Shown: one piece after another, positions 1,394 through 16,041 of the stretch
Numbering within the stretch: position 1 is the first letter of the stretch
Layout: each line of letters opens with the position of its first letter
NCBI RefSeq assembly: GCF_000711965.1
Contig: NZ_JONS01000013.1
Span: 10,545 to 34,544, forward strand
Source: Actinomyces israelii DSM 43320
GTDB lineage: Bacteria; Actinomycetota; Actinomycetes; Actinomycetales; Actinomycetaceae
Length of the DNA stretch: 24,000 bases
Direction of reading: 5' to 3'
The notes under the pieces: generated by a model
The model's input: the letters and a program-made list of their open reading frames with translations, nothing else
Database searches by the model: none
Told to the model about the DNA's origin: nothing
Translations under genes and position numbers: made by a program

Positions 1394-1433
1394 GGACCGA
1401 TCTCGGTGCGGAAGTGGACCGATCCCGGCGAAG
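1394..1433 (+). repeat. tandem-unit intergenic repeat, copy A (GGACCGATCTCGGTGC-GGAAGTGGACCGATCCCGGCGAAG)
   Basis: Two direct ~22-nt units aligning with copies B, C and D. It lies in the 122-nt nadE-HAD spacer, in the opposite orientation to both genes. Confidence 0.7.
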
Positions 1434-1473
1434 GGGCGCGGCGGGGCGCAGCGCACGGCGCGCCCCGGCGCGC

Positions 1474-3753
1474 TCAGGCAGGCGGAACGTTGCGCTCGAG
1501 CTCGGCGATCCAGGCGGCTGCGCCGGCGTCCGAGGGCATGCGCCAGTCGCCGCGCGGGGACAGCGAGCCGCCCGCGACCACCTTCGGCCCGTTGGGCAGC
1601 GTGGAGCGCTTGAACTGGTTGGAGAAGAACCGGCGGAGGAACAGCAGCTCCCACCTCCTGATGGCCGCCAGGTCGTAGGCGACCCGCTCCTCCTCCGGCA
1701 GCCCGACCGGCCACCGGCCCTCACCCGCGTCCGCCCAGGCCTTCTCCGCCAGGAAGGCGATGCGGCTCGGCCGGGACCCGCGGCGCAGCACGTGCCACAG
1801 GGTGAAGTCCTGCAGGGCGTAGGGGCCGATCCTGGCCTGGGTGGACTGGATGGGCTCGCCGTCGTCGGCGGGCACCAGCTCGGGGCTGATCTCGGTGCCG
1901 AGGACGGCCAGCAGCACCCGCCCGACGTCGTCGGAGAAGATCCGCTCGGACACCACCCAGCGGATGAGGTGCTGGATGAGGGTCTTGGGGATGCCGGCAT
2001 TGACCCCGTAGTGGGCCATCTGGTCGCCCACCCCGAAGGTGCACCAGCCCAGGGCCAGCTCGGACAGGTCGCCGGTGCCCAGCACGATGCCGCCGCGCCG
2101 GCCCGCGATGCGGAACAGGAAGTCGGTACGCAGCCCGGCCTGGACGTTCTCGAAGGTGACGTCGTAGACCTCGCGCCCGCGCTCGCCGCGCCCGTAGGGG
2201 TGGTCCATGGCGGCGAGCATCTGCTCGGCGGCGGGACGGATGTCGAGCTCCTCGACGTGGCAGCCGAGCGAGCGGGCCAGGGCGAGCGCGTTCCGCCTGG
2301 TCTCGGCGCTCGTGGCGAAGCCGGGCATGGTGATGGCGTGGACGTGCTCGCGGCCAAGGCCGAGGCGGTCCACGGCGCGGGCGGCCACAATGAGCGCGTG
2401 GGTGGAGTCCAGCCCGCCGCTGACGCCGATGACGATCCTGGGCAGCCCGATCGCGCGCAGCCGCTGGACCAGGGCGGCGACCTGGATGCTGTAGGCCTCG
2501 TAGCAGTCCTGGGCGAGGCGGGCAGGGTCGTCGGGGACGAAGGGGAAGCGGTCCACGGCGCGGCGTAGGCCGATGTCGGTGCGCGGCGCCCGCAGCGTCC
2601 GCCGCCCGATGCGCACGGTGCGGAAGCGACCGGGCCCGACGGCGTCCGCAGCGCCGGGCGCGGGGGCGCCGTCGGGCCCGGGGTGCCCCCGCCCGGGGCG
2701 CCCTGGCCCGCCGAGGGCGAGCGCCGCGCGGTTGTCGTCGAAGGAGCCCTGGCGCAGCCGCTCGGCGCGCAGCCCCTCGATATCGACGTCGATGACCGTG
2801 GCGCGCGGCCCGTCGGGGAAGCGCTCGGTCTCCCCCAGGAGGTCGCCGTTCTCATAGACGAAGGTCTGACCGTCCCAGGCCAGGTCCGTGGACGACTCGC
2901 CCTGCCCGGCGGCCGCGAACACGTAGGCGGCCAGGCCCCGCGAGCTGGAGGCGCGCGCCAGGAGCTTGCGGTCCTCGGCCCGGCCCACGGTGATGGGCGA
3001 GCCGGAGAGGTTGACCAGCACGGTCGCCCCGGCCAGGGCCGCCAGCGACGACGGCGGCACGGGCACCCACATGTCCTCGCAGACCTCCACGTGGAAGGTC
3101 AGGCCCGGCACGTCGGCGACCTCGAAGAGCAGGTTCGGGCCGAAGGGCACGCCAGCGCCGCCCTCCCGGTTCCCGACGGCGGGGGTCGCCCCTGCGCCGT
3201 CGCGGTGCCCGACGGCGCCGCCCTCCCCTGCGCCGTCGCGGACTCCCGGCAGGGAGATCCGCCGGGCCGCCGCGCTGCGCCCGTCGGCGCCGTCGGCGAA
3301 GTGCCGCTTCTCGTAGAACTCGCGGTAGGTGGGCAGGTAGGACTTCGGGACGACGCCGCGCACGGCCCCGCCCTGGATGACGACAGCACAGTTGTACAGG
3401 CGGTTGCCCTCCCGCAGGGGCGCGCCGACGACGATCGCCGGCAGGAGCCCGGCGGAGGCCGCGCGGATGGTCTCGATGGCGGCGAGGACCTCGTCAAGCA
3501 GCACGTCGCCGAGCAGCAGGTCGTCGATGGAGTAGCCGGTCAGGCTGAGCTCGGGGAAGGCGGCCAGGCACACGCCGTCGTCGGACAGGGTGCGGGCCTG
3601 CTCAATGATCGCCGTCGCGTTGGCGGCGGGGTTCGCCAGTGCGACGGGCAGGGTGACGGCGGCCACGCGCGCGAAGCCCTGGTCGTAGGCGGAGCGGAAC
3701 TCGATGGCCGGCCGGCCGGTGGCGGGGGGCGGCGTGGGTGCGTCCTGGTGCAT
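1474..3753 (-). CDS. nadE: glutamine-dependent NAD(+) synthetase (N-terminal CN-hydrolase/glutaminase domain + C-terminal NAD synthetase domain)
   Basis: 759-aa ORF. The N-terminus has the nitrilase-type 'AAFPELSLTGY' and 'EVCEDMW' catalytic Cys region. The C-terminus has the ATP-pyrophosphatase P-loop 'GVSGGLDST'. SD GGGAGGA lies 7 nt upstream of the ATG at 3753. Confidence 0.9.
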   Translation of the reverse strand: MHQDAPTPPPATGRPAIEFRSAYDQGFARVAAVTLPVALANPAANATAIIEQARTLSDDGVCLAAFPELSLTGYSIDDLLLGDVLLDEVLAAIETIRAASAGLLPAIVVGAPLREGNRLYNCAVVIQGGAVRGVVPKSYLPTYREFYEKRHFADGADGRSAAARRISLPGVRDGAGEGGAVGHRDGAGATPAVGNREGGAGVPFGPNLLFEVADVPGLTFHVEVCEDMWVPVPPSSLAALAGATVLVNLSGSPITVGRAEDRKLLARASSSRGLAAYVFAAAGQGESSTDLAWDGQTFVYENGDLLGETERFPDGPRATVIDVDIEGLRAERLRQGSFDDNRAALALGGPGRPGRGHPGPDGAPAPGAADAVGPGRFRTVRIGRRTLRAPRTDIGLRRAVDRFPFVPDDPARLAQDCYEAYSIQVAALVQRLRAIGLPRIVIGVSGGLDSTHALIVAARAVDRLGLGREHVHAITMPGFATSAETRRNALALARSLGCHVEELDIRPAAEQMLAAMDHPYGRGERGREVYDVTFENVQAGLRTDFLFRIAGRRGGIVLGTGDLSELALGWCTFGVGDQMAHYGVNAGIPKTLIQHLIRWVVSERIFSDDVGRVLLAVLGTEISPELVPADDGEPIQSTQARIGPYALQDFTLWHVLRRGSRPSRIAFLAEKAWADAGEGRWPVGLPEEERVAYDLAAIRRWELLFLRRFFSNQFKRSTLPNGPKVVAGGSLSPRGDWRMPSDAGAAAWIAELERNVPPA

Positions 3754-3863
3754 GTGACGATCCTCCCACGGACGTCGGGGCGGGGCGCGGGGCGGGCTGC
3801 GGGCAGCCGAAGGGCCTCCCGTGAGGCGCCTCCGGCGCCCTGGGAGCCCCTCAGAACCCCCGA

Positions 3864-3916
3864 CGTTACCGATTCGTTACCTTCGGGGAGGAATCGAGAT
3901 CATTTCGTTATCATGG
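3864..3916 (-). repeat. decayed, AT-enriched copy I of the tandem-unit repeat
   Basis: The reverse complement reads AATGATCTCGATTCC..GAAGGTAACGAATCGGTAACG, which aligns to AACCGATCTCGAGCC-GGAAG-TGAACCGATCTCGG with many substitutions. It lies in the nadE upstream region. Confidence 0.35.
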
Positions 3917-3952
3917 ACCCGCGGAATCTCGCGGAATCCCCGTGGGGCGGGA

Positions 3953-3982
3953 TTGGATTTCCGAGCCGGGACCCCCTATAGT
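3953..3982 (+). promoter_or_regulatory. candidate sigma-A type promoter TTGGAT-N18-TATAGT
   Basis: -35 TTGGAT at 3953-3958, an 18-nt spacer, -10 TATAGT at 3977-3982 (fits the actinobacterial TANNNT). It points into a 240-nt ORF-less segment ending in two strong hairpins. Confidence 0.35.
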
Positions 3983-4045
3983 TTTCCTCGTCGGAACGCG
4001 GACGACACGAGGGGATCAGGGACCCTGTTGACTGTCGTCGCGTTC

Positions 4046-4063
4046 GGGGATGTCGCGATTCAG
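4046..4063 (+). repeat. direct repeat GGGGATGTCGCGATTCAG (partner at 4168-4186)
   Basis: About 16/18 identity with one gap to the second copy 122 nt downstream. A shorter relative, GGGGATCAGGGACC, sits at 4012-4025. Confidence 0.5.
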
Positions 4064-4087
4064 GGACCGCGCCCCCGAGCCCGACAC

Positions 4088-4118
4088 GAGGCCCCGCACC
4101 GCAAGGTGTCGGGGCCTC
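4088..4118. terminator. 9-bp GC hairpin GAGGCCCCG-N13-CGGGGCCTC
   Basis: Perfect stem 4088-4096/4110-4118. An alternative, mutually exclusive stem is CCGACAC (4081-4087) with GTGTCGG (4106-4112). On the + strand it is followed by CCTCTGTTCTCC, a weak T tract. Confidence 0.4.
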
Positions 4119-4123
4119 CCTCT

Positions 4124-4163
4124 GTTCTCCGGCAGGTCATGATCGCAACACCTGCCGGAGAAC
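4124..4163. terminator. 14-bp perfect hairpin GTTCTCCGGCAGGT-N12-ACCTGCCGGAGAAC
   Basis: Arms at 4124-4137 and 4150-4163, loop CATGATCGCAAC. It lies 68 nt beyond the TetR stop on the minus strand and downstream of the 3953-3982 promoter on the plus strand. There is no U tract on either strand. Confidence 0.45.
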
Positions 4164-4167
4164 CGCC

Positions 4168-4186
4168 GGGGGACGTCGCGATCAGT
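4168..4186 (+). repeat. direct repeat GGGGGACGTCGCGATCAG (partner of 4046-4063)
   Basis: See 4046-4063. The two copies flank the twin hairpins. Confidence 0.5.
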
Positions 4187-4192
4187 CGAGTC

Positions 4193-4235
4193 CCGGCTCG
4201 GGATCGCTTCGCTTCCGCGCCGAGACCGGTTCACC
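4193..4235 (-). repeat. tandem-unit repeat, copy F (partly decayed)
   Basis: The reverse complement is TGAACCGGTCTCGGCGCGGAAGCGAAGCGATCCCGAGCCGG. Its first TGA is the TetR stop codon (4233-4231). Confidence 0.55.
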
Positions 4236-4941
4236 CGCGGGCATCGGCGTCGATCCGCCACCGCTCCCGCAGCCCGTCCACGAACATGCGGACCTCCGGC
4301 TCCATCGAGGTGGCCAGGCACTGGTCCGCGGCGCTGTCCGGCGTCGTCGAGCACAGCCACTGGATCTGGAGCCCGTCGCTGAGGGCCACGACCGACCGGG
4401 CGATCATCCGCGACGGAGCCTCCGGACGCACGGTGCCCGTCTCCTTCCCCCGCTCCAGCGCCTCCTCGATCATCCTCACCGAGCCCGCCAGATGACTGGC
4501 GAACCACCGGTGAGCCGGATGCTCGGCGTCGAGCACGGACACCGCCGTCGCCGCGTAGATCGCCACGAGGTCCCGGTGAGCCGAGTTGTGCGCGACCAGC
4601 GCCACGAAGGCGTCGAGCAGCTCCCACGGGTCCTCGATCGCGCCACCACCCATCACGCCGACGAAGTCGTCCTGGTCCCGCCGCGCCAGCACCCGGGCGA
4701 AGAGCGCCTCCTTGGAGGAGAAGTGGTGCAGCAGCCCCGCCGTCGAGATGTCCGACGCCGTCGCGATATCGGCCAGGGACGTGCCGGCGTATCCGTGCGC
4801 CCCGAACAGCGCGATGGCCTCGTTGAGGATCCGCTCGCGCTTGTCCTCGCCGCCGGCCCTGGGGCGGCCCGGCTTGCGCCGATCGGCCTCCTCGATCTCG
4901 GAGGGATAGTCACCGGGGGAGGCACTGTCAATACTGTTCAT
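4231..4941 (-). CDS. TetR/AcrR family transcriptional regulator
   Basis: The N-terminal HTH 'RILNEAIALFGAHGYAGTSLADIATASDISTAGLLHHFSSKEALF' is typical of TetR_N. I chose the ATG at 4941 (MNSIDS...). The 82 extra codons in the track ORF are Arg/Ala/Pro-rich and look like noise. No SD is present, so the mRNA may be leaderless. Confidence 0.85.
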   Translation of the reverse strand: MNSIDSASPGDYPSEIEEADRRKPGRPRAGGEDKRERILNEAIALFGAHGYAGTSLADIATASDISTAGLLHHFSSKEALFARVLARRDQDDFVGVMGGGAIEDPWELLDAFVALVAHNSAHRDLVAIYAATAVSVLDAEHPAHRWFASHLAGSVRMIEEALERGKETGTVRPEAPSRMIARSVVALSDGLQIQWLCSTTPDSAADQCLATSMEPEVRMFVDGLRERWRIDADARG

Positions 4942-4989
4942 ACCAGCATTGTGGCACCGGGTCCCGCCCGCGCCCGGCAGGCGCGTCCC

Positions 4990-5030
4990 AATATCTCGAA
5001 CTGATCTCAGCGCGGAACTGATGCGCGCGG
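4990..5030 (+). repeat. decayed copy H of the tandem-unit repeat
   Basis: The sequence AATATCTCGAACTGATCTCAGCGCGGAACTGATGCGCGCGG aligns to GAACCGATCTCGAGCCGG..AACCGATCTCGG. It lies immediately upstream of TetR, in inverted orientation relative to copy F. Confidence 0.4.
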
Positions 5031-5483
5031 GCCCGGCGGCCGCGCGACCATTCTTCGACGGCGGGGCTCGGCTTGTCCGCAGTTCGGGTGCCGCCCCGGG
5101 GACGGCCCGCAACTGGTGCGCACGCGCTCCTTGCGCGCCGGTACGCGGGGCGGCCGCGGCAGGCCGGCACGCATTCGCCCATCGCATAACACCGCGCCCC
5201 CTCCCGGTGCAGCAGCAGTCTATGAGGATTATCCATGGGACTTATGCGAATATGATTTCGAGGATGACCGTGAGAGCTCCGGGAAGGTTCCAGGTGGTTG
5301 ATTCTGAAGGGAGGCTCAATCCTCGCGGTCCTACGTTGGCTCGCGTGGCCGTACCTTAGGCGACCGGCGACCGCGGCCCTCAAGCACGACCGCGAGAGCT
5401 TCGGGTTGTCGCCAGTCCAGGTCGGCCTCCCGGGGGTCCCGGAGAGCCGATGGAGGCCCGACGGCGGACGCCCCGAGTCCCCT

Positions 5484-5568
5484 TGAACCGATCTCGAGCC
5501 GGAAGCGGACCGATCTCGGCGAACGGGCGGCGGCCGCCGCCGGTGGACGGGGAGGGTGCCGGCGCGGG
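5484..5568 (+). repeat. tandem-unit repeat, copy B, with downstream GGGGAGGGTGCCGGCG box
   Basis: TGAACCGATCTCGAGCCGGAAGCGGACCGATCTCGGCGAACGGG occupies 5484-5529. Its first 22 nt are identical to copy C. The box GGGGAGGGTGCCGGCGCGGG lies at 5549-5568. Confidence 0.8.
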
Positions 5569-6012
5569 CACCTACAGCGTCCCGAACGAGAGCACCTCCA
5601 CGGCCACCCACACGCAGAAGTCAGCCGGCTGCTGACCCTGAGGCGGAGGAGGGCATCATTCCTTTGCCGACGCTCAACCCGCCACAAGCAGCAACGCACC
5701 CAGCGTAAGCATGAGCGAAGCGGCTACATGCCGCTCACTACTCAACCTGGATATCACTGGGTCTCACCACGTACCCCAAAGAGCGCAGAAAAGGTCCCGG
5801 CCCAGCGCGCACCATAATGAGAGGCCTGGTCAGGGGAGGATTGATTGGGTTTGCAGCATCGGACTGGGGCGAAAGAGACCGATGCCGCCATTTATGTGTT
5901 CTGCATAATATCCGGGACCGAGTCTCACGAGTCGCACGTCCACCCACCCTGCGGAGCGCCTGGCCTCGACGCGGGCCCGGCCCGCCTGCCCCACTTCCCC
6001 GCCCAGAAGCCC

Positions 6013-6052
6013 GGCCGGGGGCGGCAGGTGAACGCGCCTGCCGCCCCCGGCC
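6013..6052 (-). terminator. 16-bp perfect GC hairpin downstream of clpB
   Basis: GGCCGGGGGCGGCAGG (6013-6028), loop TGAACGCG, CCTGCCGCCCCCGGCC (6037-6052). It lies 64 nt past the clpB stop. There is no U tract, which is common in high-GC actinobacteria. Confidence 0.5.
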
Positions 6053-6115
6053 CGCCAGCCGTCGGTGCACGCCGTCCGGCTCAGGCCGGCCTCAGAGCCC
6101 GCCGCCCCGCCAGGC

Positions 6116-8830
<2,715 letters not shown>

Positions 8831-8980
8831 GTGGACCTCCTTGAAGTCGTTCAGACGGCGCAGGTCCTGGCGGGCGGGGCGGTCGGGGGCCCGCTCCTCC
8901 GGTGGTGCCGGTGGCGGTGAGGTCCCGGTCCGCGGGCCCGCGGGGGTCCTGGCGTCTCCGGCCAGTGCAACCTCGCCAGA

Positions 8981-9001
8981 GCTGAGTCTATTCCGCTCAG
9001 C
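8981..9001 (-). promoter_or_regulatory. HAIR-like inverted repeat (candidate HspR operator) overlapping a clpB promoter
   Basis: The minus strand reads GCTGAGC-GGAATAG-ACTCAGC, compared with the HAIR consensus CTTGAGT-N7-ACTCAAG. It sits within TTGCCA-N15-TAGACT (-35/-10 on the minus strand), about 150 nt upstream of the clpB start. hspR is present in this window. Confidence 0.5.
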
Positions 9002-9231
9002 TTACTGGCAAGCCGGGCGCTTTCTGCGATGAGCGCCACACGGGCCCCTTGGCGCGCCCCGCAAAGACGCCGGACCCTTGCACGCGCCGCCCACGGAGGA
9101 CCGGCGCACGCGGCGCCCTTGACACGGAGCCGTCGGGCACGCGGCATGATCGCCGCCAGAACCACGACCGTCGCCGACACCGAGACCTCCGCCGGACGGC
9201 GACCGGCACGGCACCGGTGGCGGCGGCTGTC

Positions 9232-9258
9232 GGCGGCCCCGGGGGTCGCGACCGGCGC
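9232..9258 (+). repeat. 27-bp direct repeat GGCGGCCCCGGGGGTCGCGACCGGCGC (copy 1)
   Basis: 26/27 identical to 9293-9319, with a 61-nt period. It contains the palindromes CCCCGGGG and GGTCGCGACC. Confidence 0.7.
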
Positions 9259-9292
9259 TGCGCGGAGGCCGCGCAGGCTCTCGCTGGCGAGT

Positions 9293-9319
9293 GGCGGCCC
9301 CGGGGGTCGCGAACGGCGC
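9293..9319 (+). repeat. 27-bp direct repeat (copy 2)
   Basis: GGCGGCCCCGGGGGTCGCGAACGGCGC; see 9232-9258. Confidence 0.7.
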
Positions 9320-9330
9320 GATCGCCCCCG

Positions 9331-9397
9331 GCATCGATCTGCCCCGCGGGGGGGGGGCGCCCGGGGAGGGCTGAGCGGGAAGCGGACGGACTCCGGC
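9331..9397 (+). repeat. possible disrupted copy G of the tandem-unit repeat, containing a G10 tract
   Basis: CATCGATCTGCCCCGCGG (unit 1-like) is followed by an insertion containing G10 (9348-9357) and GGGGAGGGCTGAGCG, then GGAAGCGGACGGACTCCGGC (unit 2-like, 9378-9397). Confidence 0.3.
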
Positions 9398-9487
9398 AGT
9401 GGGTACTTCTGCCCACCGCCGCGCCAGGACCATCGCATACGGTGAGAAGTGTTCTTCAGCAACGACTCCAAGCACCGGGAGACACTC

Positions 9488-10156
9488 ATGAAGACCTTCC
9501 ACCGTGTAACCGCCGTCACTGCCGCAGCGCTCCTGTCCGCGTCCCTGGCGGCATGCTCCTCGACCAGCCCCAGGAACGATTCCAGCGGCGACTCCAAGGA
9601 TCAGGAGAGCTCGGCCCAGCCGACAGCCGTATCCGCTCAGCCGGCGCCCGCCGGATACCAGATGGTCACCACGTCCACGTCGAAGATCTCCTTCGCCATT
9701 CCCGATAACTGGCAGATCCTGAGCAAGGACGCCGCCCAGGACGACCAGCGGGTTCAGGCTATCGCGGACGCGCTCGGCAAGAGCCCCGACGAGGTCCGCA
9801 CGATGCTCTCGTCCCTCGACATGCAGGCCATGTCCACGGCTCCCGACGACAAGGGATTCACCGAGAACGTGAACGTCGAGCCGGTGACAGGGCCCACCTC
9901 CCTGCCGACCGAGAACGACATGTCCCAGATGATCCAGGGGCAGAACGGCACACCGGGCGAGTACTCCACCACGCAGACCGCGCTCGGGGAGGTCGCCGTC
10001 ATGACCTACACCATGACCGTCCAGACCACCACGGTGCAGGGCGCCGTAATCGCCGTCCGGACCAAGGACGGCACCTGGACTCTCATCTGGGTGTCAACCT
10101 CAGAGACCTCCCGCGCCAAGGAGCTGGCCGGCATCATCACGTCCACGCTGTCCTGA
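9488..10156 (+). CDS. secreted lipoprotein, unknown function (paralogue 1)
   Basis: ATG at 9488 preceded by GGGAGA at 5-nt spacing. Signal peptide plus lipobox 'LLSASLAAC'. The mature domain resembles the neighbouring gene (for example 'TPGEYSTTQTALGEVAVMTYT'), and the overall layout is reminiscent of LpqN/PsbP-like lipoproteins, which is a guess. Confidence 0.8.
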   Translation: MKTFHRVTAVTAAALLSASLAACSSTSPRNDSSGDSKDQESSAQPTAVSAQPAPAGYQMVTTSTSKISFAIPDNWQILSKDAAQDDQRVQAIADALGKSPDEVRTMLSSLDMQAMSTAPDDKGFTENVNVEPVTGPTSLPTENDMSQMIQGQNGTPGEYSTTQTALGEVAVMTYTMTVQTTTVQGAVIAVRTKDGTWTLIWVSTSETSRAKELAGIITSTLS

Positions 10157-10403
10157 CGCCCCCACCCTGACGCCTCCGCCTCCTCAACACGCCTGTTCGC
10201 GTCCGCGTCCCGACTACGCTCATCGCAAACACGCGGGAACGAGCAGACGGGCACCGCCATCACGGGAACCCCGCCGGAGCGGCCACCTCGCCGCCGGGCA
10301 AGGTGCACTCGCACCAGCCCGGCGGGGGCCTTCTCCCCGTCTGCTCCGATCGTGATCGTCACATACTGTATAGACGGTTCCTCTGCAATATCGGGAGACG
10401 ATC

Positions 10404-11063
10404 ATGAAGGCCTTTTCCTGCGCGACCGCCGCAGCAGCAGCATTGCTGTCCGCCTCCCTGGCGTCCTGCTCATTGATCGGCTCCGAGGATGACCGGGGCG
10501 TCACGGCGCCAACGGGCACGGCCTCGCAGAGCGCCGAGCCGACGGATGCCTCCACCGACGGGGCCGACGACGACTACCAGACGGTCACGGCGCCCTCAAC
10601 GCAGATCTCCTTCGACGTCCCTGCAAAATGGAAGGTGATCAGCAACGACGGCCAGGGGACCGCGATTATCGCCGAGACGCTCGGCGTCGGCACCGACGGG
10701 GAGGCCCATGCGCTCACGGCCGTCGACCTGGAGGCCATCGCTCCGAAGCGCAGGAAGAAGGGCTACGCGGAGAACGTGAGCGTCGCACCGGCGGCGGAGT
10801 TCTCCTCCCTGCCGAGCGAGGAGACGCTGTCCGAGCTGATCCGGACATGGGGGGCCACCCCGGGCGAGTACTCCGTTTCCGAGACGGCCCTCGGAGACGC
10901 CGCTGTCATGACCTCCTCCATCACCGAGTACGCCACCGCGGTGCAGGGCGCCTCAATCATTGTCTCGAGCAAAGACGGCGACTGGACGACCATTACGGTG
11001 CTGACATCAGACGCCTCCCGCACCAAGGAGCTGACCGACACCATCATCTCCACCCTGTCCTGA
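10404..11063 (+). CDS. secreted lipoprotein, unknown function (paralogue 2)
   Basis: ATG preceded by GGGAGA at 5-nt spacing. Signal peptide plus lipobox 'LLSASLASC'. It is colinear with 9488-10156 ('QISFDVPAKWKVISND', 'TPGEYSVSETALGDAAVMTSS', C-terminal 'TKELTDTIISTLS'). Confidence 0.8.
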   Translation: MKAFSCATAAAAALLSASLASCSLIGSEDDRGVTAPTGTASQSAEPTDASTDGADDDYQTVTAPSTQISFDVPAKWKVISNDGQGTAIIAETLGVGTDGEAHALTAVDLEAIAPKRRKKGYAENVSVAPAAEFSSLPSEETLSELIRTWGATPGEYSVSETALGDAAVMTSSITEYATAVQGASIIVSSKDGDWTTITVLTSDASRTKELTDTIISTLS

Positions 11064-11183
11064 CGCCCACGAGCCGCCCGCCGCCCACATCATTTTGTGA
11101 CTCGCGGCGCCCGCGCCGGCGTGCCATGCTGTAGCCAGGCCGGTGCCGCCCGGCACCGCGCACCCCGACGAAAGGAGGTCGCT

Positions 11184-11366
11184 ATGGGACTTGGTGACCT
11201 GACGAGCAAGGCTGGTGAGCTCCTCGGCTCCGACAAGAGCGAGGCCGTGACCGATCAGGCTCTCGACAAGGCCGCCGATGCCGCCAAGAAGGCGACCGGC
11301 GGCAAGCTCGACTCCCAGGTCGAGGCCGTGCGCGACGCTGTCGACTCCAAGATCGGCAGCGCCTGA
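11184..11366 (+). CDS. small Rv0909/MT0933-like ('antitoxin-like') protein, 60 aa
   Basis: Strong SD AAAGGAGG (11171-11178) lies 5 nt before the ATG at 11184. 'MGLGDLTSKAGELLGSDKSEAVTDQALDKAADAAKKATGGKLDSQVEAVRDAVDSKIG' fits the helical K/D/A-rich pattern of that family. A hairpin follows at 11403-11434. Confidence 0.65.
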   Translation: MGLGDLTSKAGELLGSDKSEAVTDQALDKAADAAKKATGGKLDSQVEAVRDAVDSKIGSA

Positions 11367-11402
11367 GCCCAGGAGCATTGAAGCGGCCCTGTGATCGCAG
11401 GT

Positions 11403-11434
11403 GAGCCCCGGCGCCCCGCGGGGTGCCGGGGCTC
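11403..11434 (+). terminator. GC-rich hairpin after the 60-aa gene
   Basis: GAGCCCCGGC ... GCCGGGGCTC is a 10-bp stem with an internal CCCCGCGGGG palindrome. A second perfect 10-bp hairpin, CCCAGCCCAG-N7-CTGGGCTGGG, lies at 11467-11493. Confidence 0.5.
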
Positions 11435-11541
11435 CTGCGCTCCGGCCGGCCCGCCCGACGACGGGCCCCAGCCCAGCGAGCCCCTGGGCTGGGCGGGGGC
11501 CCGGCGGGCCCCCGCCCGGGAGCCTCCTGCACAATGCCCCC

Positions 11542-13875
11542 ATGACCGACCCGACCGACCCGACCGACGCAGCCCCCGCCCAGCCCGGCCTGCCGCCCGT
11601 GCCCGCCTGGCTCGACGACATCGAGGGCGACCGGGCCCTCGCCTGGGTCGCCGAGCACAACGCCGCGACCCGCGCCGTCGTCGAGGGAGCCGAGCGCTTC
11701 GAGGCCATCCGGGCCGAGACCGAGGCGATCCTCGACTCGCCCGACCGCATCCCCGCCGTCGGCCAGGCGAACGGCCTGCTCTACAACTTCTGGACCGACG
11801 CCGACCACCCGCGCGGCCTGTGGCGCCGCACCACCTGGGAGTCCTACCGCGCGGGCGCCCCCGGTCGGGCCGACAACGGCACCGCTGCGTCAGGCGCGGC
11901 CTCCGCCGAGACCGGCACCCGGTGGGAGGTGCTGCTCGATCTCGACGCGCTCGGCGAGACCGAGGGCGTCGCCTGGGTGTGGCACGGCGCCCAGGTCCTG
12001 CGCACCGGGCCCCTGGCCGGTCGGCGCGCCCTCGTGACCCTCTCCGACGGCGGTGCGGACGCCGATGTCACCCGCGAGCTGGACCTCGACACCGGGCGCT
12101 TCATCCCGCCCGCCGAGGGCGGCTTTCACCGCGGGGCCTCCAAGGGGTCGCTGTCGTGGGCCGACGACGAGGGCGGCTCGGTGCTGGCCCTGACCGACCT
12201 CGGCGAGGGCTCCTTGTCCCCCTCCGGGTACCCGCGCCAGGTCAGGCGGCTGCTGCGCGGCCAGCAGCCGGCCGAGGGCGAGGTCCTGCTGACCGCCGCA
12301 GCCGACGACGACGGCGCCTGGGCCCACCGCGACCGCTGGGGCCGCACCTGGCTGCTCACACGCCCCGACTTCTACACCGAGGAGCTGTGGCTGCTTCCCG
12401 ACGGCGCCCCCGCCCTCCCGGCGTCGTCGGGACCGGGCGCCCTGGCGGAGGCCTCCGCGACCGTGGCCCCGGGAGCCGTGCACATCGACGTGCCCGCCTC
12501 CGCGGAGGCCTCCGCCGTGTGGGACTGGCTCCTGGTCAGCCTGCGCGAGGACTGGGAGACCGGCGGCGCCGTCCACCGGGCGGGCTCGCTGCTGGCCGCG
12601 CCCCTGGAGGACTTCCTGGCCGGCGGGCGCGACTTCGAGACCCTGTTCGCCCCGACGCCGTCGGCCTGTCTGATCGGCTTCACCGCAACCGCCCGCCACC
12701 TGGCCCTCACCCTGCTCGACGACTGTGCGGCCGCCCTGGAGGTGCTCACGCCCCCGCGCGCCACCACCGGCGGGTGGGCGCGCCGCCCCCTGGACCTGGG
12801 CGCGCTGGCCGGGAGGCCCGATGCCGGCGCCCGCGCCGATGCCGAAGCCGACGCTCCTGCGCGGCCCGACGCGCAGCCCGACCCCACTGCGCTGCGCCCG
12901 GGCCGGCCCCTGATCGAGGTCAGCGCCACCGCCGTCGACGGGCGGGAGGGCGACCGGCTGTGGCTGACGACGTCGTCCTTCACCCGGCCGACCACCCTCA
13001 TGGCGGGCGAGCTCGACGACGACGGCGCCCTGACCGGCGTCGAGGTGCTGCGCGCCGCGCCGGAGCGCTTCGATGCGACCGGCGTCGAGGTGAGCCAGCA
13101 CGTGGCGGTCAGTGCGGACGGCACGCGCGTACCCTACTTCCAGATCGGGCGGCCGGTCGCCGACGCCGAGGGGCGCGCCGCGGGCGGGCCGACGATCCTG
13201 TACGGCTACGGCGGCTTCGAGGTGCCACTGGGGATCGGGTACCTTCCGGTGACCGGCAAGGCGTGGCTGGAGCGGGGCGGCACCTATGTCATTGCCAACA
13301 TCCGCGGGGGCGGGGAGTACGGGCCGGCCTGGCACCGCGCCGGGCTCAAGGAGCACCGGCACCGCGTCTACGAGGACTTCGCGGCGGTCGCCCGGGCGCT
13401 GAGCGAGCGGGGCGTCGCCGCGCCGGGGCGGCTGGCCGTGCACGGGGGCTCCAACGGCGGCCTGCTCGTGGGCAATATGCTCACTCAGTACCCCGACCTG
13501 GTCGGGGCGGTGCTGTGCGAGGTGCCGCTGCTGGACATGCGCCGCTATACCCACCTGCTGGCCGGCGCCTCCTGGCGGGCCGAGTACGGGGACCCGGACG
13601 ACCCGGCCCAGTGGGAGTTCATCCGGACCTTCTCCCCCTTCCACCTGCTGGAGGCCGGGCACGACTACCCGCCGGTGCTGCTGGTGACCTCGACCCGGGA
13701 CGACCGGGTCCACCCGGCGCACGCGCGCACCATGGCCCACCGGCTGGAGAGCCTGGGGCAGGCGGTGACGTACTTCGAGAACTCCGAGGGCGGGCACGGC
13801 CGGGCCTCGACCAATGCGCAGCGGGCCTTCATGAGCGCCCTGACCTACGACTTCGCCTGGCGGACCCTGCGCTAG
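11542..13875 (+). CDS. prolyl oligopeptidase family (S9) serine peptidase
   Basis: The C-terminal alpha/beta-hydrolase domain has the nucleophile 'GGSNGGLLVG', 'TSTRDDRVHPAHA' (Asp) and 'EGGHG' (His). The N-terminal propeller begins 'WLDDIEGDRALAWVAEHN'. I chose the ATG at 11542 (MTDPTDPTD...); the upstream 47 codons of the track ORF cross two hairpins. Confidence 0.85.
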   Translation: MTDPTDPTDAAPAQPGLPPVPAWLDDIEGDRALAWVAEHNAATRAVVEGAERFEAIRAETEAILDSPDRIPAVGQANGLLYNFWTDADHPRGLWRRTTWESYRAGAPGRADNGTAASGAASAETGTRWEVLLDLDALGETEGVAWVWHGAQVLRTGPLAGRRALVTLSDGGADADVTRELDLDTGRFIPPAEGGFHRGASKGSLSWADDEGGSVLALTDLGEGSLSPSGYPRQVRRLLRGQQPAEGEVLLTAAADDDGAWAHRDRWGRTWLLTRPDFYTEELWLLPDGAPALPASSGPGALAEASATVAPGAVHIDVPASAEASAVWDWLLVSLREDWETGGAVHRAGSLLAAPLEDFLAGGRDFETLFAPTPSACLIGFTATARHLALTLLDDCAAALEVLTPPRATTGGWARRPLDLGALAGRPDAGARADAEADAPARPDAQPDPTALRPGRPLIEVSATAVDGREGDRLWLTTSSFTRPTTLMAGELDDDGALTGVEVLRAAPERFDATGVEVSQHVAVSADGTRVPYFQIGRPVADAEGRAAGGPTILYGYGGFEVPLGIGYLPVTGKAWLERGGTYVIANIRGGGEYGPAWHRAGLKEHRHRVYEDFAAVARALSERGVAAPGRLAVHGGSNGGLLVGNMLTQYPDLVGAVLCEVPLLDMRRYTHLLAGASWRAEYGDPDDPAQWEFIRTFSPFHLLEAGHDYPPVLLVTSTRDDRVHPAHARTMAHRLESLGQAVTYFENSEGGHGRASTNAQRAFMSALTYDFAWRTLR

Positions 13876-13913
13876 CCCGCCGAGATCGGTCCGCTGCACC
13901 GAGCCACAGCGAG
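13876..13913 (-). repeat. tandem-unit repeat, copy E (first unit decayed); fills the entire peptidase-Fic convergent spacer
   Basis: The reverse complement is CTCGCTGTGGCTCGGTGC-AGCGGACCGATCTCGGCGGGC. It begins directly after the Fic TAG (13916-13914). Confidence 0.55.
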
Positions 13914-14552
13914 CTACTCGTCAAGCACCTCGACGAACGGAGCGAAGCGGGCGTAGTAGTCGTCCTGCAGCGAGCGGAGCGTCTCGCGCAGGAACCCGGG
14001 CTGGTGCTCGTACTCGTTGAGACCCCGGTAGTAGAAGAGCTTCGTGGCGTCGAGGACGATGAAGGGCATGAGGCCATTGCGCAGGCACTGCTGGAACATC
14101 AGCATCCGGCCGACCCGGCCGTTACCGTCCTGAAAAGGGTGGATGCTCTCGAAGCGGTGGTGGAAGTCCGCGACGTCGTCGAGCGTCATGGACCCCGGCG
14201 TGCGCGCCAGAAGATCCTCGATCGCCGGCCCGACGCGCCCAGAGGCGACCGTCTCCCGCCCGCCGACGACGTTGGGCACGCGCTTCCAGCCGCCGACGGC
14301 AAAGGACGGCCTGCGGGCGTCGGCCGTCCCGCGCTTGAGGATCCGGTGGTAGTCCTTCATCACCGCTGCCGTGATCGGCTCGTCGAACCGGTCGAGCACG
14401 GCGTCGAACAGCTCAAAGCCGTTGACGGTCTCCACAATGTCGTCAACGGGGAGGGCATCGCCGGCAATGGTGCGGGTCTCGTAGATGTAGCGGGTCTGCT
14501 CCTCATCGAGGCGGCTGCCCTCGATCCGGTTGGAGTTGTAGGCCATGAGCAC
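13914..14552 (-). CDS. Fic/DOC family protein (class II, AMPylase-type); the 5' end appears frameshifted, and the intact gene would start at 14656
   Basis: Fic active-site motif 'HPFQDGNGRVGR' (HxFx[DE]GNGRxxR). N-terminal inhibitory-helix motif 'SNRIEG' ([ST]xxxE[GN]). A separate 23-codon ORF head (ATG 14656, SD GGAGG, about 96% GC3) reads into a different frame near 14587-14592. Confidence 0.8.
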   Translation of the reverse strand: MLMAYNSNRIEGSRLDEEQTRYIYETRTIAGDALPVDDIVETVNGFELFDAVLDRFDEPITAAVMKDYHRILKRGTADARRPSFAVGGWKRVPNVVGGRETVASGRVGPAIEDLLARTPGSMTLDDVADFHHRFESIHPFQDGNGRVGRMLMFQQCLRNGLMPFIVLDATKLFYYRGLNEYEHQPGFLRETLRSLQDDYYARFAPFVEVLDE

Positions 14553-14700
14553 CTGGTTGAGGTGGTAGAGGCCGCCTTCATCCGGGTGCGGCGCTGCTCG
14601 CGCAGGGTGCGCGCGAAGCGCGCGGGGTCAATGGCGTACTCGCCCTGCTCGGGCATGCCGCACCCCCTCCCCGATCCGCAGGGCTTCCATGCTACGAGTC

Positions 14701-14757
14701 ACCCGCACCGAGATCGGTTCACTTCCGGCTCGAGATCGGTTCACTTCCACAACTTCC
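14701..14757 (-). repeat. tandem-unit repeat, copy C (two full units plus extra GGAAGT spacers)
   Basis: The reverse complement is GGAAGTTGTGGAAG-TGAACCGATCTCGAGCCGGAAG-TGAACCGATCTCGGTGCGGGT. A further decayed unit reaches back to the GNAT stop (14779-14777). The box GGGGAGGGGGTGCGGC (14672-14657) ends at the Fic ATG. Confidence 0.8.
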
Positions 14758-14776
14758 ACATCGAGACGCCGTCGCC

Positions 14777-15256
14777 TCAGCACGCTCGAAGGTCGGCGCG
14801 CATGGCGGGGAACTTGTTGAGCGTGAAGCCGGTCTGCTCGTACATGCCCTGTCCCGCCTCGGTGGCCATGAGCTCGGCCCGGCCGATGCCGGTCGATGCG
14901 GCCCACCGCATCACCGCCTCGAAGGCCCGCCGGCCGTGCCCGCGACCGCGATGGGCCGGAAGAGTGCACACGTTGCTGACCAGCACGTCGCGGCCGTCGG
15001 GGACCTCGGGCGAGGGCGCGGCGTCCCGGACCGCCCCCATCGCGCAGGCCACGACCTCCCGATCCGCCTGCACGACGAAGATCCCGTATATCGGGTCCCT
15101 GATCCTCTCGAGGAACCAGCGACGCGCGTTGCTCCGCCACCGGCCATCCGTCATCGCCGTCCCCGTCATGCGGAACATCTCCTCGCGCAGCGCCACCAGA
15201 GCACTGACGTCGGGAACGGTCGCCCGTCTCACGACAATGGCATCATCCACGGTCAC
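14777..15256 (-). CDS. GNAT family N-acetyltransferase
   Basis: Acetyl-CoA binding motif 'VCTLPAHRGRGHGRRAFEAV' (Q/RxxGxG/A type) with typical GNAT length. The start is uncertain: GTG at 15256 (VTVDDAIVVRRATVPDV), 15250 or 15295. The rest of the 405-aa track ORF is antisense to the DUF2992 gene and looks non-coding. Confidence 0.75.
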   Translation of the reverse strand: MTVDDAIVVRRATVPDVSALVALREEMFRMTGTAMTDGRWRSNARRWFLERIRDPIYGIFVVQADREVVACAMGAVRDAAPSPEVPDGRDVLVSNVCTLPAHRGRGHGRRAFEAVMRWAASTGIGRAELMATEAGQGMYEQTGFTLNKFPAMRADLRAC

Positions 15257-15340
15257 GAAACTACCGTGGGCCCAAGCATGAGCAAAGGCCCTCACCCGGG
15301 CCGAGTCGAGGCATGCGCCACGGCGCTCCGTCGGCAGCGG

Positions 15341-15346
15341 TAGAAT
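15341..15346 (+). promoter_or_regulatory. -10 hexamer TAGAAT, candidate promoter of the DUF2992 gene
   Basis: It is the best -10 match in the 225-nt divergent GNAT/DUF2992 spacer. There is no good -35. It would give a ~130-nt leader. Confidence 0.4.
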
Positions 15347-15481
15347 CGCTCCATCAGATCCTGGTGCGCGAATCGCACTGCCCGGTAGGAAGTCCGGGCG
15401 GCACCCCGCCCGTGCCCGTCGCCTCGCCCCGTCGAGGAATCCGGCGTCACCAGGTCCGCTTCGGCGTACCTGGAGACAACA

Positions 15482-15907
15482 ATGGCGACGACTTTCACCA
15501 TCTTCTTCGACGGCCACCGGTGGGTGGGTGTTCTTGAGCAGCGCGACGGCGGCCAGATCCGAGCCGCTCGGGTCGTCTTCGGCCGAGAACCGAGCGGCGC
15601 GGAGATCGAGGACTGGCTCCGCCGTCACGGCAACGACCTCATTGCCCGCGCGTCCGCTGCGCAGCCCATCGACGACGGCGGCCGCCCGGCAATGCGGGCG
15701 CGCAGTCCGAAGCGCGCCCAGCGCGAGGCCGCCCGGCAGGCGCGCCAGCCGCACGGCGCCACCGCCTCCCAGCAGGCCCTCGCCGCAGACCGGGAGGCAC
15801 GAGCCGCAGCCCGCGCACAGGACGAGGCCGCCCGACGTCGTCGGGACCGCGAGGAGGCGTGGGCGAGGCGACGCGCACGCGCCCGAGCGCGCCACCGGGG
15901 CCGGTGA
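15482..15907 (+). CDS. YjdF-family protein (DUF2992)
   Basis: The N-terminus 'FTIFFDGHRWVGVLEQRDGGQIRAARVVFGREPSGAEIEDWL', the central 'SPKRAQREAARQ' and the basic tail ending 'RHRGR' match the DUF2992 pattern as I remember it. SD GGAGA lies 5 nt before the ATG. Confidence 0.75.
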   Translation: MATTFTIFFDGHRWVGVLEQRDGGQIRAARVVFGREPSGAEIEDWLRRHGNDLIARASAAQPIDDGGRPAMRARSPKRAQREAARQARQPHGATASQQALAADREARAAARAQDEAARRRRDREEAWARRRARARARHRGR

Positions 15908-15967
15908 ACCGATCTCGACGCGGAGCTGGACCGATCTCGGCGAAGAGGGGCGAGGGTGCCGGCGGGG
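15905..15967 (+). repeat. tandem-unit repeat, copy D, with downstream GAGGGTGCCGGCGGGG box
   Basis: TGAACCGATCTCGACGCGGAGCTGGACCGATCTCGGCGAAGAGGGG is followed by CGAGGGTGCCGGCGGGG. The first TGA (15905-15907) is the DUF2992 stop codon. Confidence 0.8.
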
Positions 15968-15999
15968 CTGCGTGCTGGACGGGCGCGCGGGCACACGAG

Positions 16000-16041
16000 A
16001 GCCGCCGGCGCGTACCCCTGAAACACGCGCTCGGCGGCTCG
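16000..16041. terminator. 15-bp (one bulge) hairpin between convergent DUF2992 and ABC permease genes
   Basis: GAGCCGCCGGCGCGT, loop ACCCCTGAAAC, ACGCGCTCGGCGGCTC. It could serve both strands. There is no U tract. Confidence 0.5.

Follow-up and report, generated by a model that had tools for sequence, protein, structure and literature searches.

Several described families of intergenic repeats share features with the element considered here. In Mycobacterium tuberculosis, MIRU-VNTR loci are dispersed, tandem direct repeats found intergenically, also between the genes of operons, and strains differ in their copy number. A MIRU unit measures 40-100 bp, with reported small reading frames that overlap neighbouring genes. 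The pneumococcal BOX element (boxA-boxB(n)-boxC) is modular; its modules of 45-59 nt form stable RNA structures. REP/BIME and REPIN sequences (RAYT transposases) are present in hundreds of intergenic copies and are single imperfect palindromes that form hairpins. Integron attC sites, and the intergenic mosaic repeats and minimal mobile elements of Neisseria, are found just after the stop codons of small accessory genes. The STAR elements of Staphylococcus aureus are interspersed, intergenic, GC-rich direct repeats with a 14-bp motif, T(G/A/T)TGTTG(G/T)GGCCC(C/A), whose occurrences are at least 40 bp apart; the loci expand and contract, and their function is not known (PMC3532100).

The window, a stretch of 24,000 nt from Actinomyces israelii DSM 43320 (contig NZ_JONS01000013.1, positions 10,545 to 34,544), contains a genuine dispersed, intergenic family of direct repeats. 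A repeat locus consists of one to ten 22-bp units placed head to tail, with a sharp 3′ end in a G-rich tail and a slightly frayed 5′ end. Each unit displays a two-part conserved motif, ACCGATCTCG-N3-CGGR, and variable linkers. Core positions 2-11 are conserved at 94-100% and the CGG at 98-100%, compared with 34-66% for other linker positions, as measured without selection bias; the two-part conservation was replicated on a second set whose search pattern lacked CGGA. The initial annotation had placed the direct units about 22 nt apart, and the phase is in fact 22 nt without exception (153 of 153 adjacent pairs). It had also described two tandem units, which is the local state of arrays A-D but not a defining property, as arrays elsewhere have 1-10. 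The tail (consensus GCGAAGGGG) directly follows the last core and is a general feature of the arrays. A downstream box had been assigned to B, C and D; this 16-mer, GGGGAGGGTGCCGGCG, is common to B (exact) and D (one mismatch) only, and the G-rich stretch at array C is the Fic gene's ribosome-binding site. With up to three mismatches the 16-mer has 8 matches against 3.6 expected, a number reached by 3 of 100 shuffles and barely above chance.

Like STAR elements, the Actinomyces repeat is GC-rich and combines a short conserved motif with a less conserved spacer, and it is lineage-specific, with expanding and contracting loci at positions that are stable within lineages (PMC3532100). It differs in its 10 + 4-bp two-part motif, strict 22-bp period, G-rich tail and orientation rule with respect to stops; there is no sequence relationship, and the phyla are different. 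With MIRU-VNTR it shares intergenic tandem direct repeats in actinobacteria, many loci and strain-variable copy number, and the nadE-HAD site lies within an operon. Its unit, however, at 22 bp, is not divisible by 3, its sequence is unrelated and its loci are far more numerous. As in BOX, a variable number of middle modules can stand between differing ends, since some subfamilies have an additional 5′ module before the n units and the tail, but the arrays have no selected structure. With REP/REPIN it has in common that the copies between genes run into the hundreds, favour gene 3′ ends, form inverted doublets and have long stayed in place across species, and that the conserved core is presumably a protein recognition site; unlike REP, the units are direct and tandem and have weak dyad symmetry. 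As with attC and the Neisseria elements, the repeats mark sites where gene content differs from strain to strain, but the loci lack an integrase and attC-type inverted repeats, and they are dispersed rather than gathered in one cassette array.

Nine copies had been proposed in the window, and seven of these are supported (A-D, E, F and H). All seven are in non-coding DNA, as had been stated; non-coding DNA makes up 15% of the window. Two units are present in A, B, C and D and, in decayed form, in F, and E and H consist of one unit each. The pattern ACCGATCTCGNNNCGGARNNGRACCGATC matches exactly at A (1396-1424, plus strand), B (5487-5515, plus), C (14712-14740, minus) and D (15908-15936, plus), and with two mismatches at F (4202-4230, minus). 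The 11-mer core has 11 matches in the window with at most one mismatch (1.45 expected). When scored with a position-weight matrix from 150 unit positions in other genomes, picked by phase and not by match, A, B, C, D, F and H are far above background; in copy E the terminal core is perfect. Copy I (3864-3916) is a marginal case, its core score of 7.0 being close to the 98th percentile of background, and copy G (9331-9397) is without support as a member of the repeat family. The reported identity of B and C is correct, letter for letter, over TGAACCGATCTCGAGCCGGAAG.

A fortuitous resemblance, or an artefact of sequencing or assembly such as adapter-like sequence, was considered. The reverse strand reads AGATCGG, 7 nt in common with Illumina adapters, and the literature matches to ACCGATCTCG are primer or adapter sequences. 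An origin of this kind is refuted, and its probability is negligible: none of 100 shuffles matches the two-unit pattern, and the copies have unique flanks, occupy shared sites, and occur in independent isolate genomes and many metagenome assemblies.

Array A (1395-1438, plus strand) consists of unit 1 (1395-1416, GACCGATCTCGGTGCGGAAGTG), a terminal core (1417-1427, GACCGATCCCG) and a G-rich tail (1428-1438, GCGAAGGGGCG). The distance from the tail to the nadE stop codon (1474, minus strand) is 35 nt, and that from the 5′ end to the HAD-hydrolase gene start (1351) is 43 nt. Array B (5486-5529, plus strand), flanked by the start of a TetR gene and the clpB stop, has unit 1 at 5486-5507, its terminal core at 5508-5518 and its tail at 5519-5529 (GCGAACGGGCG). 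Copy H (4999-5020, plus strand), a single decayed unit (AACTGATCTCAGCGCGGAACTG; matrix score 19.7) 58 nt upstream of the TetR start, has the orientation of array B, from which it is separated by ∼465 nt of non-coding DNA specific to A. israelii. Copy F (4188-4231, minus strand) is formed by decayed units at 4231-4210 (AACCGGTCTCGGCGCGGAAGCG) and 4209-4188 (AAGCGATCCCGAGCCGGGACTC), with matrix scores of 18.6 and 9.0; the first overlaps a TetR gene stop codon. Array C (14698-14741, minus strand) has two units, 14741-14720 and 14719-14698. It is in sense orientation 35 nt past the stop codon of a GNAT gene (14777-14779) and upstream of the Fic gene. Copy E (13876-13913, minus strand) is situated between the Fic stop (13914) and the stop codon of a peptidase gene (13873-13875), which is 5 nt away, with a decayed preceding unit (13913-13892), a terminal core (13891-13881) and a short tail. 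In array D (15907-15964, plus strand), unit 1 (15907-15928) is followed by the terminal core (15929-15939) and the G-rich tail (15940-15964), and the TGA stop of a DUF2992 gene (15905-15907) overlaps the 5′ edge.

A scan for further copies, which the initial annotation had named as a possible refutation, detected many in related genomes. More than 200 arrays of 2-10 units are present in Actinomyces gerencseriae, Actinomyces massiliensis and oral metagenomes; the scans gave at least 73 loci in two isolate genomes and at least 120 metagenome stretches, from which ∼100 unique arrays (genome set) and 108 (metagenome set) were drawn. The accompanying check on coding regions found multi-unit arrays inside genes in just 2 of 104 and 4 of 108 cases. 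The family is confined to the A. israelii group, that is, A. israelii, A. gerencseriae, A. massiliensis and at least one further species. Syntenic segments of 14-22 kb from Actinomyces sp. oral taxon 414, Actinomyces radicidentis and two further relatives contain no arrays. The family was not found in phage and plasmid collections, and, with hundreds of chromosomal loci, the earlier suggestion of iterons is not sustained. Rfam gives no matches at gathering thresholds, with arrays unmatched at E ≤ 1, and literature searches did not find a description of the repeat; in agreement with the initial annotation, which had not recognised it, the family is apparently undescribed. That annotation made no mention of copy-number variation, stop-codon anchoring or a link to gene insertion.

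Array sites are shared across species, and arrays are kept at such sites in three to four species, but the number of units differs between species and strains. Array A has two units in the window compared with five in A. massiliensis and four in L088, and one or two in A. israelii strains. Array B, with two units in the window, has three in other A. israelii strains and in the A. massiliensis orthologue, which is 24 nt from the clpB stop. For array D, two units in the window correspond to three in A. gerencseriae L070 and five in A. massiliensis L003. Shifts in unit number at fixed chromosomal sites are the pattern expected of replication slippage or unequal exchange. Linkers also show species-typical forms: CGGAAC[CT]N in 54 of 58 in A. 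gerencseriae, mostly CGGAAG[TC] in A. israelii and mixed in A. massiliensis. Such similarity across unlinked loci indicates turnover or exchange between arrays.

It had been stated that the element cannot fold. This holds for two-unit arrays of the window, which fold no better than shuffles (z +0.95 and -0.57), but not for 7-unit arrays: the unit is quasi-palindromic, and these fold back on either strand with z of about -3.4 (range -3.3 to -3.6). Pairing needs G and T at positions 12 and 13, which are found in only ∼37% and ∼27% of units. The variable positions thus do not maintain fold-back pairing, and the long-array fold is probably incidental. These data bear on the idea of a 3′ UTR element, whereby transcribed arrays bind an RNA-binding protein or fold back and stabilise or terminate the upstream message. 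The location of arrays directly behind stop codons, with one orientation preferred, is in keeping with it, as are the folds of long arrays; yet both array orientations occur directly after stops, and Rfam offers no match. A role as RNA is considered very improbable, and we infer that the repeat is not a structured RNA.

Arrays have a preferred position with respect to stop codons. In the two sets, 70 of 98 arrays (p = 2.6e-5) and 67 of 98 (p = 3.5e-4) have the tail directed at a convergent stop codon, at a median distance of 25-34 nt, as determined with a codon-position GC gene caller that misses some small genes and gives approximate start codons. In several convergent gene pairs (L027, L030, L037 and L068) two arrays are 9-25 nt from both stops. 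There is often no room for a hairpin terminator, and canonical U-tract terminators are not enriched in the window (4 found, 3.5 expected). One explanation is that a sequence-specific host protein coats the phased units at gene 3′ ends, where they might, depending on orientation, serve as a roadblock to transcription or as an insulator, or might help to organise the nucleoid, just past the stop. An invariant motif with varying linkers and the persistence of arrays at shared sites point in this direction. On the other hand, ∼30% of arrays are directed at a start codon or have the other orientation, and the number of units drifts freely between 1 and 10. Moreover, close relatives do without the family, and in oral taxon 414 nadE and the HAD gene are just 11 nt apart. 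A host function of this kind is regarded as unlikely.

Neighbouring arrays are arranged tails-out in 43 cases and tails-in in 2, and 14 of 18 tails-out pairs in the genome set have no gene between them. These doublets recall transposon ends, already suggested in the initial annotation: arrays could be stacked transposase-binding sites at the ends of a non-autonomous mobile element, as in Tn7 and Mu ends or foldback elements, with solo arrays as one-ended relics. In A. massiliensis the middle region, 250-480 nt long, is homologous between several tails-out composites at different loci, the outer boundary of arrays is sharp and the inner one fuzzy, and the family is limited to one lineage, all of which fit such an origin. 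However, 18 pairs examined at all symmetric offsets did not reveal a target-site duplication, and pair spacing, from 5 to ∼1900 nt, does not define a fixed element. Ten genes checked between paired arrays include no transposase and are ordinary cargo (citrate transporter, OmpA-family proteins, GNAT acetyltransferases and others). Variable unit number would be unusual for transposon ends, and arrays are retained at shared sites across species. Furthermore, if each array is anchored to its flanking stop codon, the tails-out pattern follows automatically. A mobile-element origin is judged unlikely. Gene families that recur near arrays have sizes typical of ordinary large paralogue families, judged by cluster size.

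Two gene insertions display clean junctions at arrays. A 3.2-kb ABC-transporter/HTH operon, present in some A. israelii strains, has direct units on both sides, and the window allele at this site corresponds to an exact crossover within the core. The operon is foreign DNA, with 62.6% GC compared with 72% for the window; one of its proteins has a 66%-identical homologue in another organism, in an element that also encodes an integrase and a primase-polymerase. The Fic gene is bracketed in direct orientation by array C and copy E, whereas A. massiliensis has a single uninterrupted 3-unit array at this position and lacks the gene. The genes of both insertions read in the same direction as the arrays, and an array begins 0-35 nt past the last stop; DUF2992, TetR and GNAT genes are likewise followed by an array in sense orientation. 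Weaker cases are the non-coding H-B insert and a 1.9-kb insertion/deletion between L036 and L030 with a unit on one side only. As junctions of accessory DNA fall inside units, arrays act as recombination junctions. Dispersed, integron-like gene capture, in which a dedicated recombinase cuts in the core and inserts circular gene cassettes, would agree with direct units at both boundaries, the sense orientation and a crossover point inside the invariant core. Against this, no integrase was found near arrays, the units do not have the inverted repeats that characterise attC sites of integrons, and there are just two clean examples. Homologous recombination between arrays after inter-strain DNA transfer explains the junctions equally well, and dedicated capture appears quite improbable. 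The junctions themselves fit homologous and site-specific recombination alike.

The reading we favour, with a probability of roughly 0.6, is that of a lineage-specific, dispersed, variable-number repeat whose core is a putative protein recognition site and whose arrays serve as recombination junctions. Recurrence of the two-part core every two helical turns suggests recognition by a sequence-specific protein, which would explain why the core is kept near-invariant; the phased protein-binding array first proposed fits this combination of invariant motif and varying linkers. The putative protein may be a recombinase- or transposase-like enzyme that spreads the family, or a DNA-binding protein of use to the host; no binding protein, recombinase or transposase has been identified for the arrays. 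The preferred site places the tail 10-40 nt beyond the stop codon of a gene that is read towards the array, and it may be where arrays are generated or where they are tolerated. Pure hitch-hiking alone does not account for the anchoring of tails to stops or for the strong orientation rule (43 versus 2), and a cis function at gene 3′ ends would account for both. Replication slippage or unequal exchange would change unit number at fixed sites, and the arrays provide a portable stretch of homology at which genes are gained and lost.

Four copies of the repeat in the window, A (1395..1438, plus strand), B (5486..5529, plus), C (14698..14741, minus) and D (15907..15964, plus), match the two-unit pattern ACCGATCTCGNNNCGGARNNGRACCGATC exactly, and copy F (4188..4231, minus) matches it with two mismatches. 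The pattern was found in none of 100 shuffled sequences. A position-weight matrix, derived from unit positions of other genomes that were selected by phase and not by match, supports two units each in A, B, C and D, two decayed units in F and one decayed unit in H (4999..5020, plus); copy E (13876..13913, minus) has a perfect terminal core. The initial annotation listed nine copies, all in non-coding DNA. Seven of these hold (A, B, C, D, E, F and H), the copy termed I (3864-3916) is marginal and G (9331-9397) is unsupported; the non-coding location is borne out, as 7/7 supported copies fall within the non-coding 15% of the window. A G-rich 16-mer, thought to be a conserved module in B, C and D, is not one. 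Only B and D share it, to a degree that barely exceeds chance, and the stretch at C is the ribosome-binding site of the Fic gene. The general feature is instead a G-rich tail with the consensus GCGAAGGGG, directly after the last core.

Further copies, which the initial annotation proposed to look for, are numerous in related genomes. A scan of one genome per species detected at least 73 loci, and the matches listed are all from A. gerencseriae DSM 6844 and A. massiliensis 4401292. A metagenome scan for three cores, with the linker unconstrained, matched at least 120 DNA stretches, of which 80 loci were analysed. The unit has the consensus GACCGATCTCGnnnCGGAnnnn and a 22-bp period, and the spacing is exactly 22 nt in 153 of 153 adjacent pairs. 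Array length is two to seven units in the genome set, reaches 10 in the metagenome set and ranges overall from 1 to 10. With positions defined by phase only, conservation amounts to 94-100% for unit positions 2-11 (ACCGATCTCG), 98-100% for the CGG of positions 15-17, 88% for the A of position 18 and 34-66% for the remaining linker positions. Fourteen of the 22 positions make up the invariant motif. The two-part conservation recurs in the metagenome set, where the search pattern did not include CGGA. The array boundary at the tail is sharp, and about a quarter of arrays have one extra degenerate unit 5′. Such a unit flanks 23% of arrays 5′ and 3% of arrays 3′, and decay at both array ends is therefore rejected.

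Additional sequences are associated with the 5′ side of some arrays. At least five arrays have a conserved module of ∼50 nt (…gaatgcccgactcgcggccccg…cccgggcgcgccgccgtc) directly 5′ of their first unit, which suggests subfamilies with their own 5′ module. It is present at the A. gerencseriae loci L011, L020, L042, L047 and L056 and at positions 8560-8604 of L088, a locus from a fourth species. Many A. massiliensis arrays have on their 5′ side a second repeat family, a CA-rich module that is 250-480 nt long and contains both a hairpin (CTCCCATGTGCG...CGCACATGGGAG) and the motif CTCCCATGTGCAACACC. At several loci this module and the arrays together make up composite tails-out elements. Examples are L010 4410-5064, L023 1968-2473, L045 3854-4550, L072 719-1253, L009 5970-6240 and L030 3560-4176.

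Single units of the core can be read as codons, and the initial annotation raised the possibility that hits would be equally frequent in coding regions. Multi-unit arrays are hardly ever inside genes (2/104 and 4/108). Positions relative to genes were determined with a codon-position GC caller, whose stop codons are exact and start codons approximate. In 70/98 cases in the genome set (p=2.6e-5) and 67/98 in the metagenome set (p=3.5e-4), the tail is directed at the stop codon of a gene that reads towards the array, and the median distance from the last core to the facing stop is 25-33 nt and 34 nt, respectively. Several convergent gene pairs have the gap filled by two arrays, 9-25 nt from both stop codons. 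On the 5′ side, distances in the genome set are much larger than on the tail side. A replication-direction bias would not produce the orientation rule, as only the tail-side gene is biased and the 5′ side of the genome set displays no preference (51 vs 45); the 5′ side of the metagenome set leans to co-directional genes (58 vs 34, p=0.016). Small accessory genes encoding DUF2992, TetR and GNAT proteins are sense-oriented and end at, or at most 35 nt from, the first unit. Neighbouring arrays no more than 4 kb apart are tails-out, direct and tails-in in 18, 15 and 0 cases in the genome set and in 25, 10 and 2 cases in the metagenome set, which amounts to 43 tails-out versus two tails-in pairs. 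It is the stop-codon anchoring and the scarcity of tails-in pairs that hint most strongly that the arrays are more than passive repeat DNA, and no explanation offered here accounts fully for them. At one locus, L074, a two-unit array (18594-18626, minus strand) is within the called 3′ end of a HAD-hydrolase gene of 305 amino acids. The probable A. radicidentis counterpart has 279 amino acids, and the array may therefore have extended the reading frame.

The window is A. israelii DNA, and its NadE protein has 100% identity to an NCBI entry from this species. Loci of A. massiliensis (L069 and L003) and A. gerencseriae (L070) are syntenic with it, and the arrays differ in length at these fixed sites. 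Array A has two units in the window, five in A. massiliensis and four in the fourth species; array B has two in the window and three in A. massiliensis; and array D has two in the window, three in A. gerencseriae and five in A. massiliensis. A. israelii strains recovered from metagenomes carry one or two units in array A and two or three in array B. As unit number differs between A. israelii strains at fixed loci, with 2-5 units at orthologous sites, the arrays are a variable-number interspersed tandem repeat in the generic, MIRU-like sense. They are also ready-made variable-number markers for typing A. israelii strains. The linker is almost only CGGAAC[CT]N in A. gerencseriae, a mixture in A. 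massiliensis and, as read from the window copies, mostly CGGAAG[TC] in A. israelii. Species-typical linkers with a fixed core imply that units turn over or are exchanged between loci. In Actinomyces sp. oral taxon 414, A. radicidentis and two further relatives, the syntenic regions lack arrays. The gap between nadE and the HAD gene is only 11 nt in oral taxon 414, and the locus L089 has a unit-like relic at the nadE-HAD site.

The repeat marks sites of accessory gene entry and exit. In some A. israelii strains, a 3.2-kb ABC-transporter/HTH operon is found between nadE and the HAD gene. It is bounded by a unit plus tail on one side and a two-unit array plus tail on the other, in direct orientation, and the window allele is the exact product expected from a crossover inside the core. 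The insert has a G+C content of 62.6% vs 72% for the window, and one of its proteins has a homologue (66% identity) in another organism, within an element that carries an integrase and a primase-polymerase. The Fic gene of the window is bracketed by the minus-strand copies C and E, and its position in A. massiliensis is occupied by one uninterrupted three-unit array. Two weaker cases are the ∼465 nt of A. israelii-specific non-coding DNA between H and B, and a 1.9-kb difference between the array-bearing loci L036 and L030 at an array 5′ edge, with a unit on one side only.

Both non-coding flanks of array B, 5021-5485 (∼465 nt) and 5530-6115 (586 nt), are missing in A. massiliensis, where the counterpart array is 24 nt from the clpB stop. 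The region at about 5640-5940 appears by eye to be more A+T-rich, and strains differ by a deletion of ∼96 nt in this flanking DNA. A structured RNA beside B (5225-5485) was considered and rejected, with fold z-scores of -0.7 and -1.3. Near the Fic gene, an ATG-initiated frame at 14360-14656 (minus strand, start at 14656) has a strong ribosome-binding site (GGGGAGGGGGTGCGGCATG). This frame differs from that of the Fic domain (13914-14552, minus strand); either a frameshift or a short frame preceding Fic may be the reason. Two tandem paralogous genes without a Pfam match, at 9449-10156 and 10404-11063 (plus strand), are 76% identical over 213 nt and 73% over 85 nt, and are upstream of a small gene annotated as an MT0933-like antitoxin in other assemblies. 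A hairpin (GAGCCGCCGGCGCGTACCCCTGAAACACGCGCTCGGCGGCTC) at 15999-16040, between array D and the stop of a permease gene, is a possible terminator or small RNA element. It is conserved, together with its loop CCCCTGA(A/T)ACA, in A. gerencseriae and A. massiliensis.

Assembly gaps and contig ends also fall at arrays (L009 5497-5966; the starts of L081 and L083-L085; the 3′ end of L092). Several metagenome loci have an array at position 1-2, and the 3.2-kb ABC cassette is often its own short contig. From these gaps and contig ends, the repeat fragments short-read assemblies of array-bearing species, and it accounts for intergenic breaks in assemblies of these oral pathogens.

The arrays were compared with known classes of elements. 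There are no Rfam matches at gathering thresholds in the window, and at E<=1 none overlaps an array, either in the window or in four loci rich in arrays. Between nadE and the TetR gene, at 3985-4091 (plus strand), the Rfam small RNA Actinomyces-1 gives a near-threshold match (33.6 bits; gathering score 39.1). This match is probably a genuine homologue, because it lies in a 281-nt block (3891-4171) that is 92% identical to A. massiliensis, far above neighbouring intergenic DNA.

REP/BIME (REPIN) units are imperfect-palindrome hairpins. The array units are direct, and the two-unit window copy shows no excess folding over shuffles (z-scores of +0.95 and -0.57). The assertion that the element cannot fold is correct for such two-unit copies and fails for arrays of seven units: the unit is quasi-palindromic, and these arrays reach z-scores of about -3.4 on either strand (down to -3.6). 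The variable unit positions do not keep the fold-back pairing and the two-unit copies do not fold, so that a selected RNA or single-stranded DNA structure is unlikely.

MITE or transposon ends would display terminal inverted repeats and a target-site duplication. Tails-out pairs are present, and no 5-mer duplicate was detected at symmetric offsets of 0-29 in 18 pairs. The initial annotation had pointed to a phased protein-binding array, as in multi-site transposon ends or iterons; the iteron comparison fails, and the one with transposon ends is unlikely. Tn7/Mu-type ends have a fixed set of sites and transposition genes; here units vary from one to 10, and the ten genes checked between paired arrays are all ordinary cargo with no transposase. 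Iterons are direct repeats clustered at an origin beside an initiator gene, and here more than 200 chromosomal arrays are dispersed beside unrelated genes. A phage or plasmid origin is rejected, with no array match in viral contigs, 72,556 plasmids or 50,697 phages.

CRISPR repeats are 24-48 nt long with unique spacers of similar length, and the 11-12 nt between array cores is a semi-conserved linker with an invariant CGG. With integron attC sites, the only common feature is direct units bounding inserted genes; the inverted-repeat architecture is lacking, and there is no integrase in the window or its syntenic flanks. The window has no tRNA gene that could provide an attachment site. A promoter or ECF-sigma reading does not fit: the spacing is unsuitable, there is no -10-like hexamer and a scan found no promoter-like site. 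Gene families that recur near arrays form one cluster of 11 members, a second of six and others of at most five among 489 predicted proteins, which is the usual size range of large, ordinary paralogue families.

MIRU loci, BOX elements and REP/BIME each have some properties in common with the arrays. The STAR element of staphylococci comes closest: it is a direct repeat interspersed between genes, and it has a short conserved motif, expanding and contracting loci and a function that is not known (PMC3532100). STAR elements have a 14-bp motif, T(G/A/T)TGTTG(G/T)GGCCC(C/A), with spacers of at least 40 bp (PMC3532100), which the array consensus and its 22-bp period do not match. No description of the 22-bp array family was found in the literature. 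As all class memberships based on sequence or architecture fail, the arrays are a new family among dispersed tandem repeats.

The comparisons show variation in copy number at fixed sites, species-typical linkers and junctions of insertions inside units. Unit number might be changed by slippage or unequal exchange, and recombination between arrays would homogenise them and move or delete intervening DNA. The two-part core, phased every two helical turns, would be kept through recognition by a putative protein. RAYT transposases propagate REP elements, and the putative protein might propagate the array family in a similar manner, or it might serve the host, for example as an orientation-dependent transcription block directly downstream of stop codons. 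The invariant motif, the stop-codon anchoring and the scarcity of tails-in pairs together suggest such a sequence-specific protein. A more far-reaching proposal, which we consider improbable, is that the A. israelii group has a dispersed gene-capture system of its own, with the arrays as its landing sites on the chromosome. A dedicated putative protein would recognise the invariant ACCGATCTCG-N3-CGGR core, and foreign cassettes would be inserted, excised and moved between hundreds of sites past stop codons. This protein might be a recombinase, or a factor guiding uptake or recombination, by analogy with proteins that recognise DNA uptake sequences. The invariance of the motif and its anchoring turn the old question of what purpose dispersed bacterial repeats have into a tractable one in the Actinomyces israelii group.
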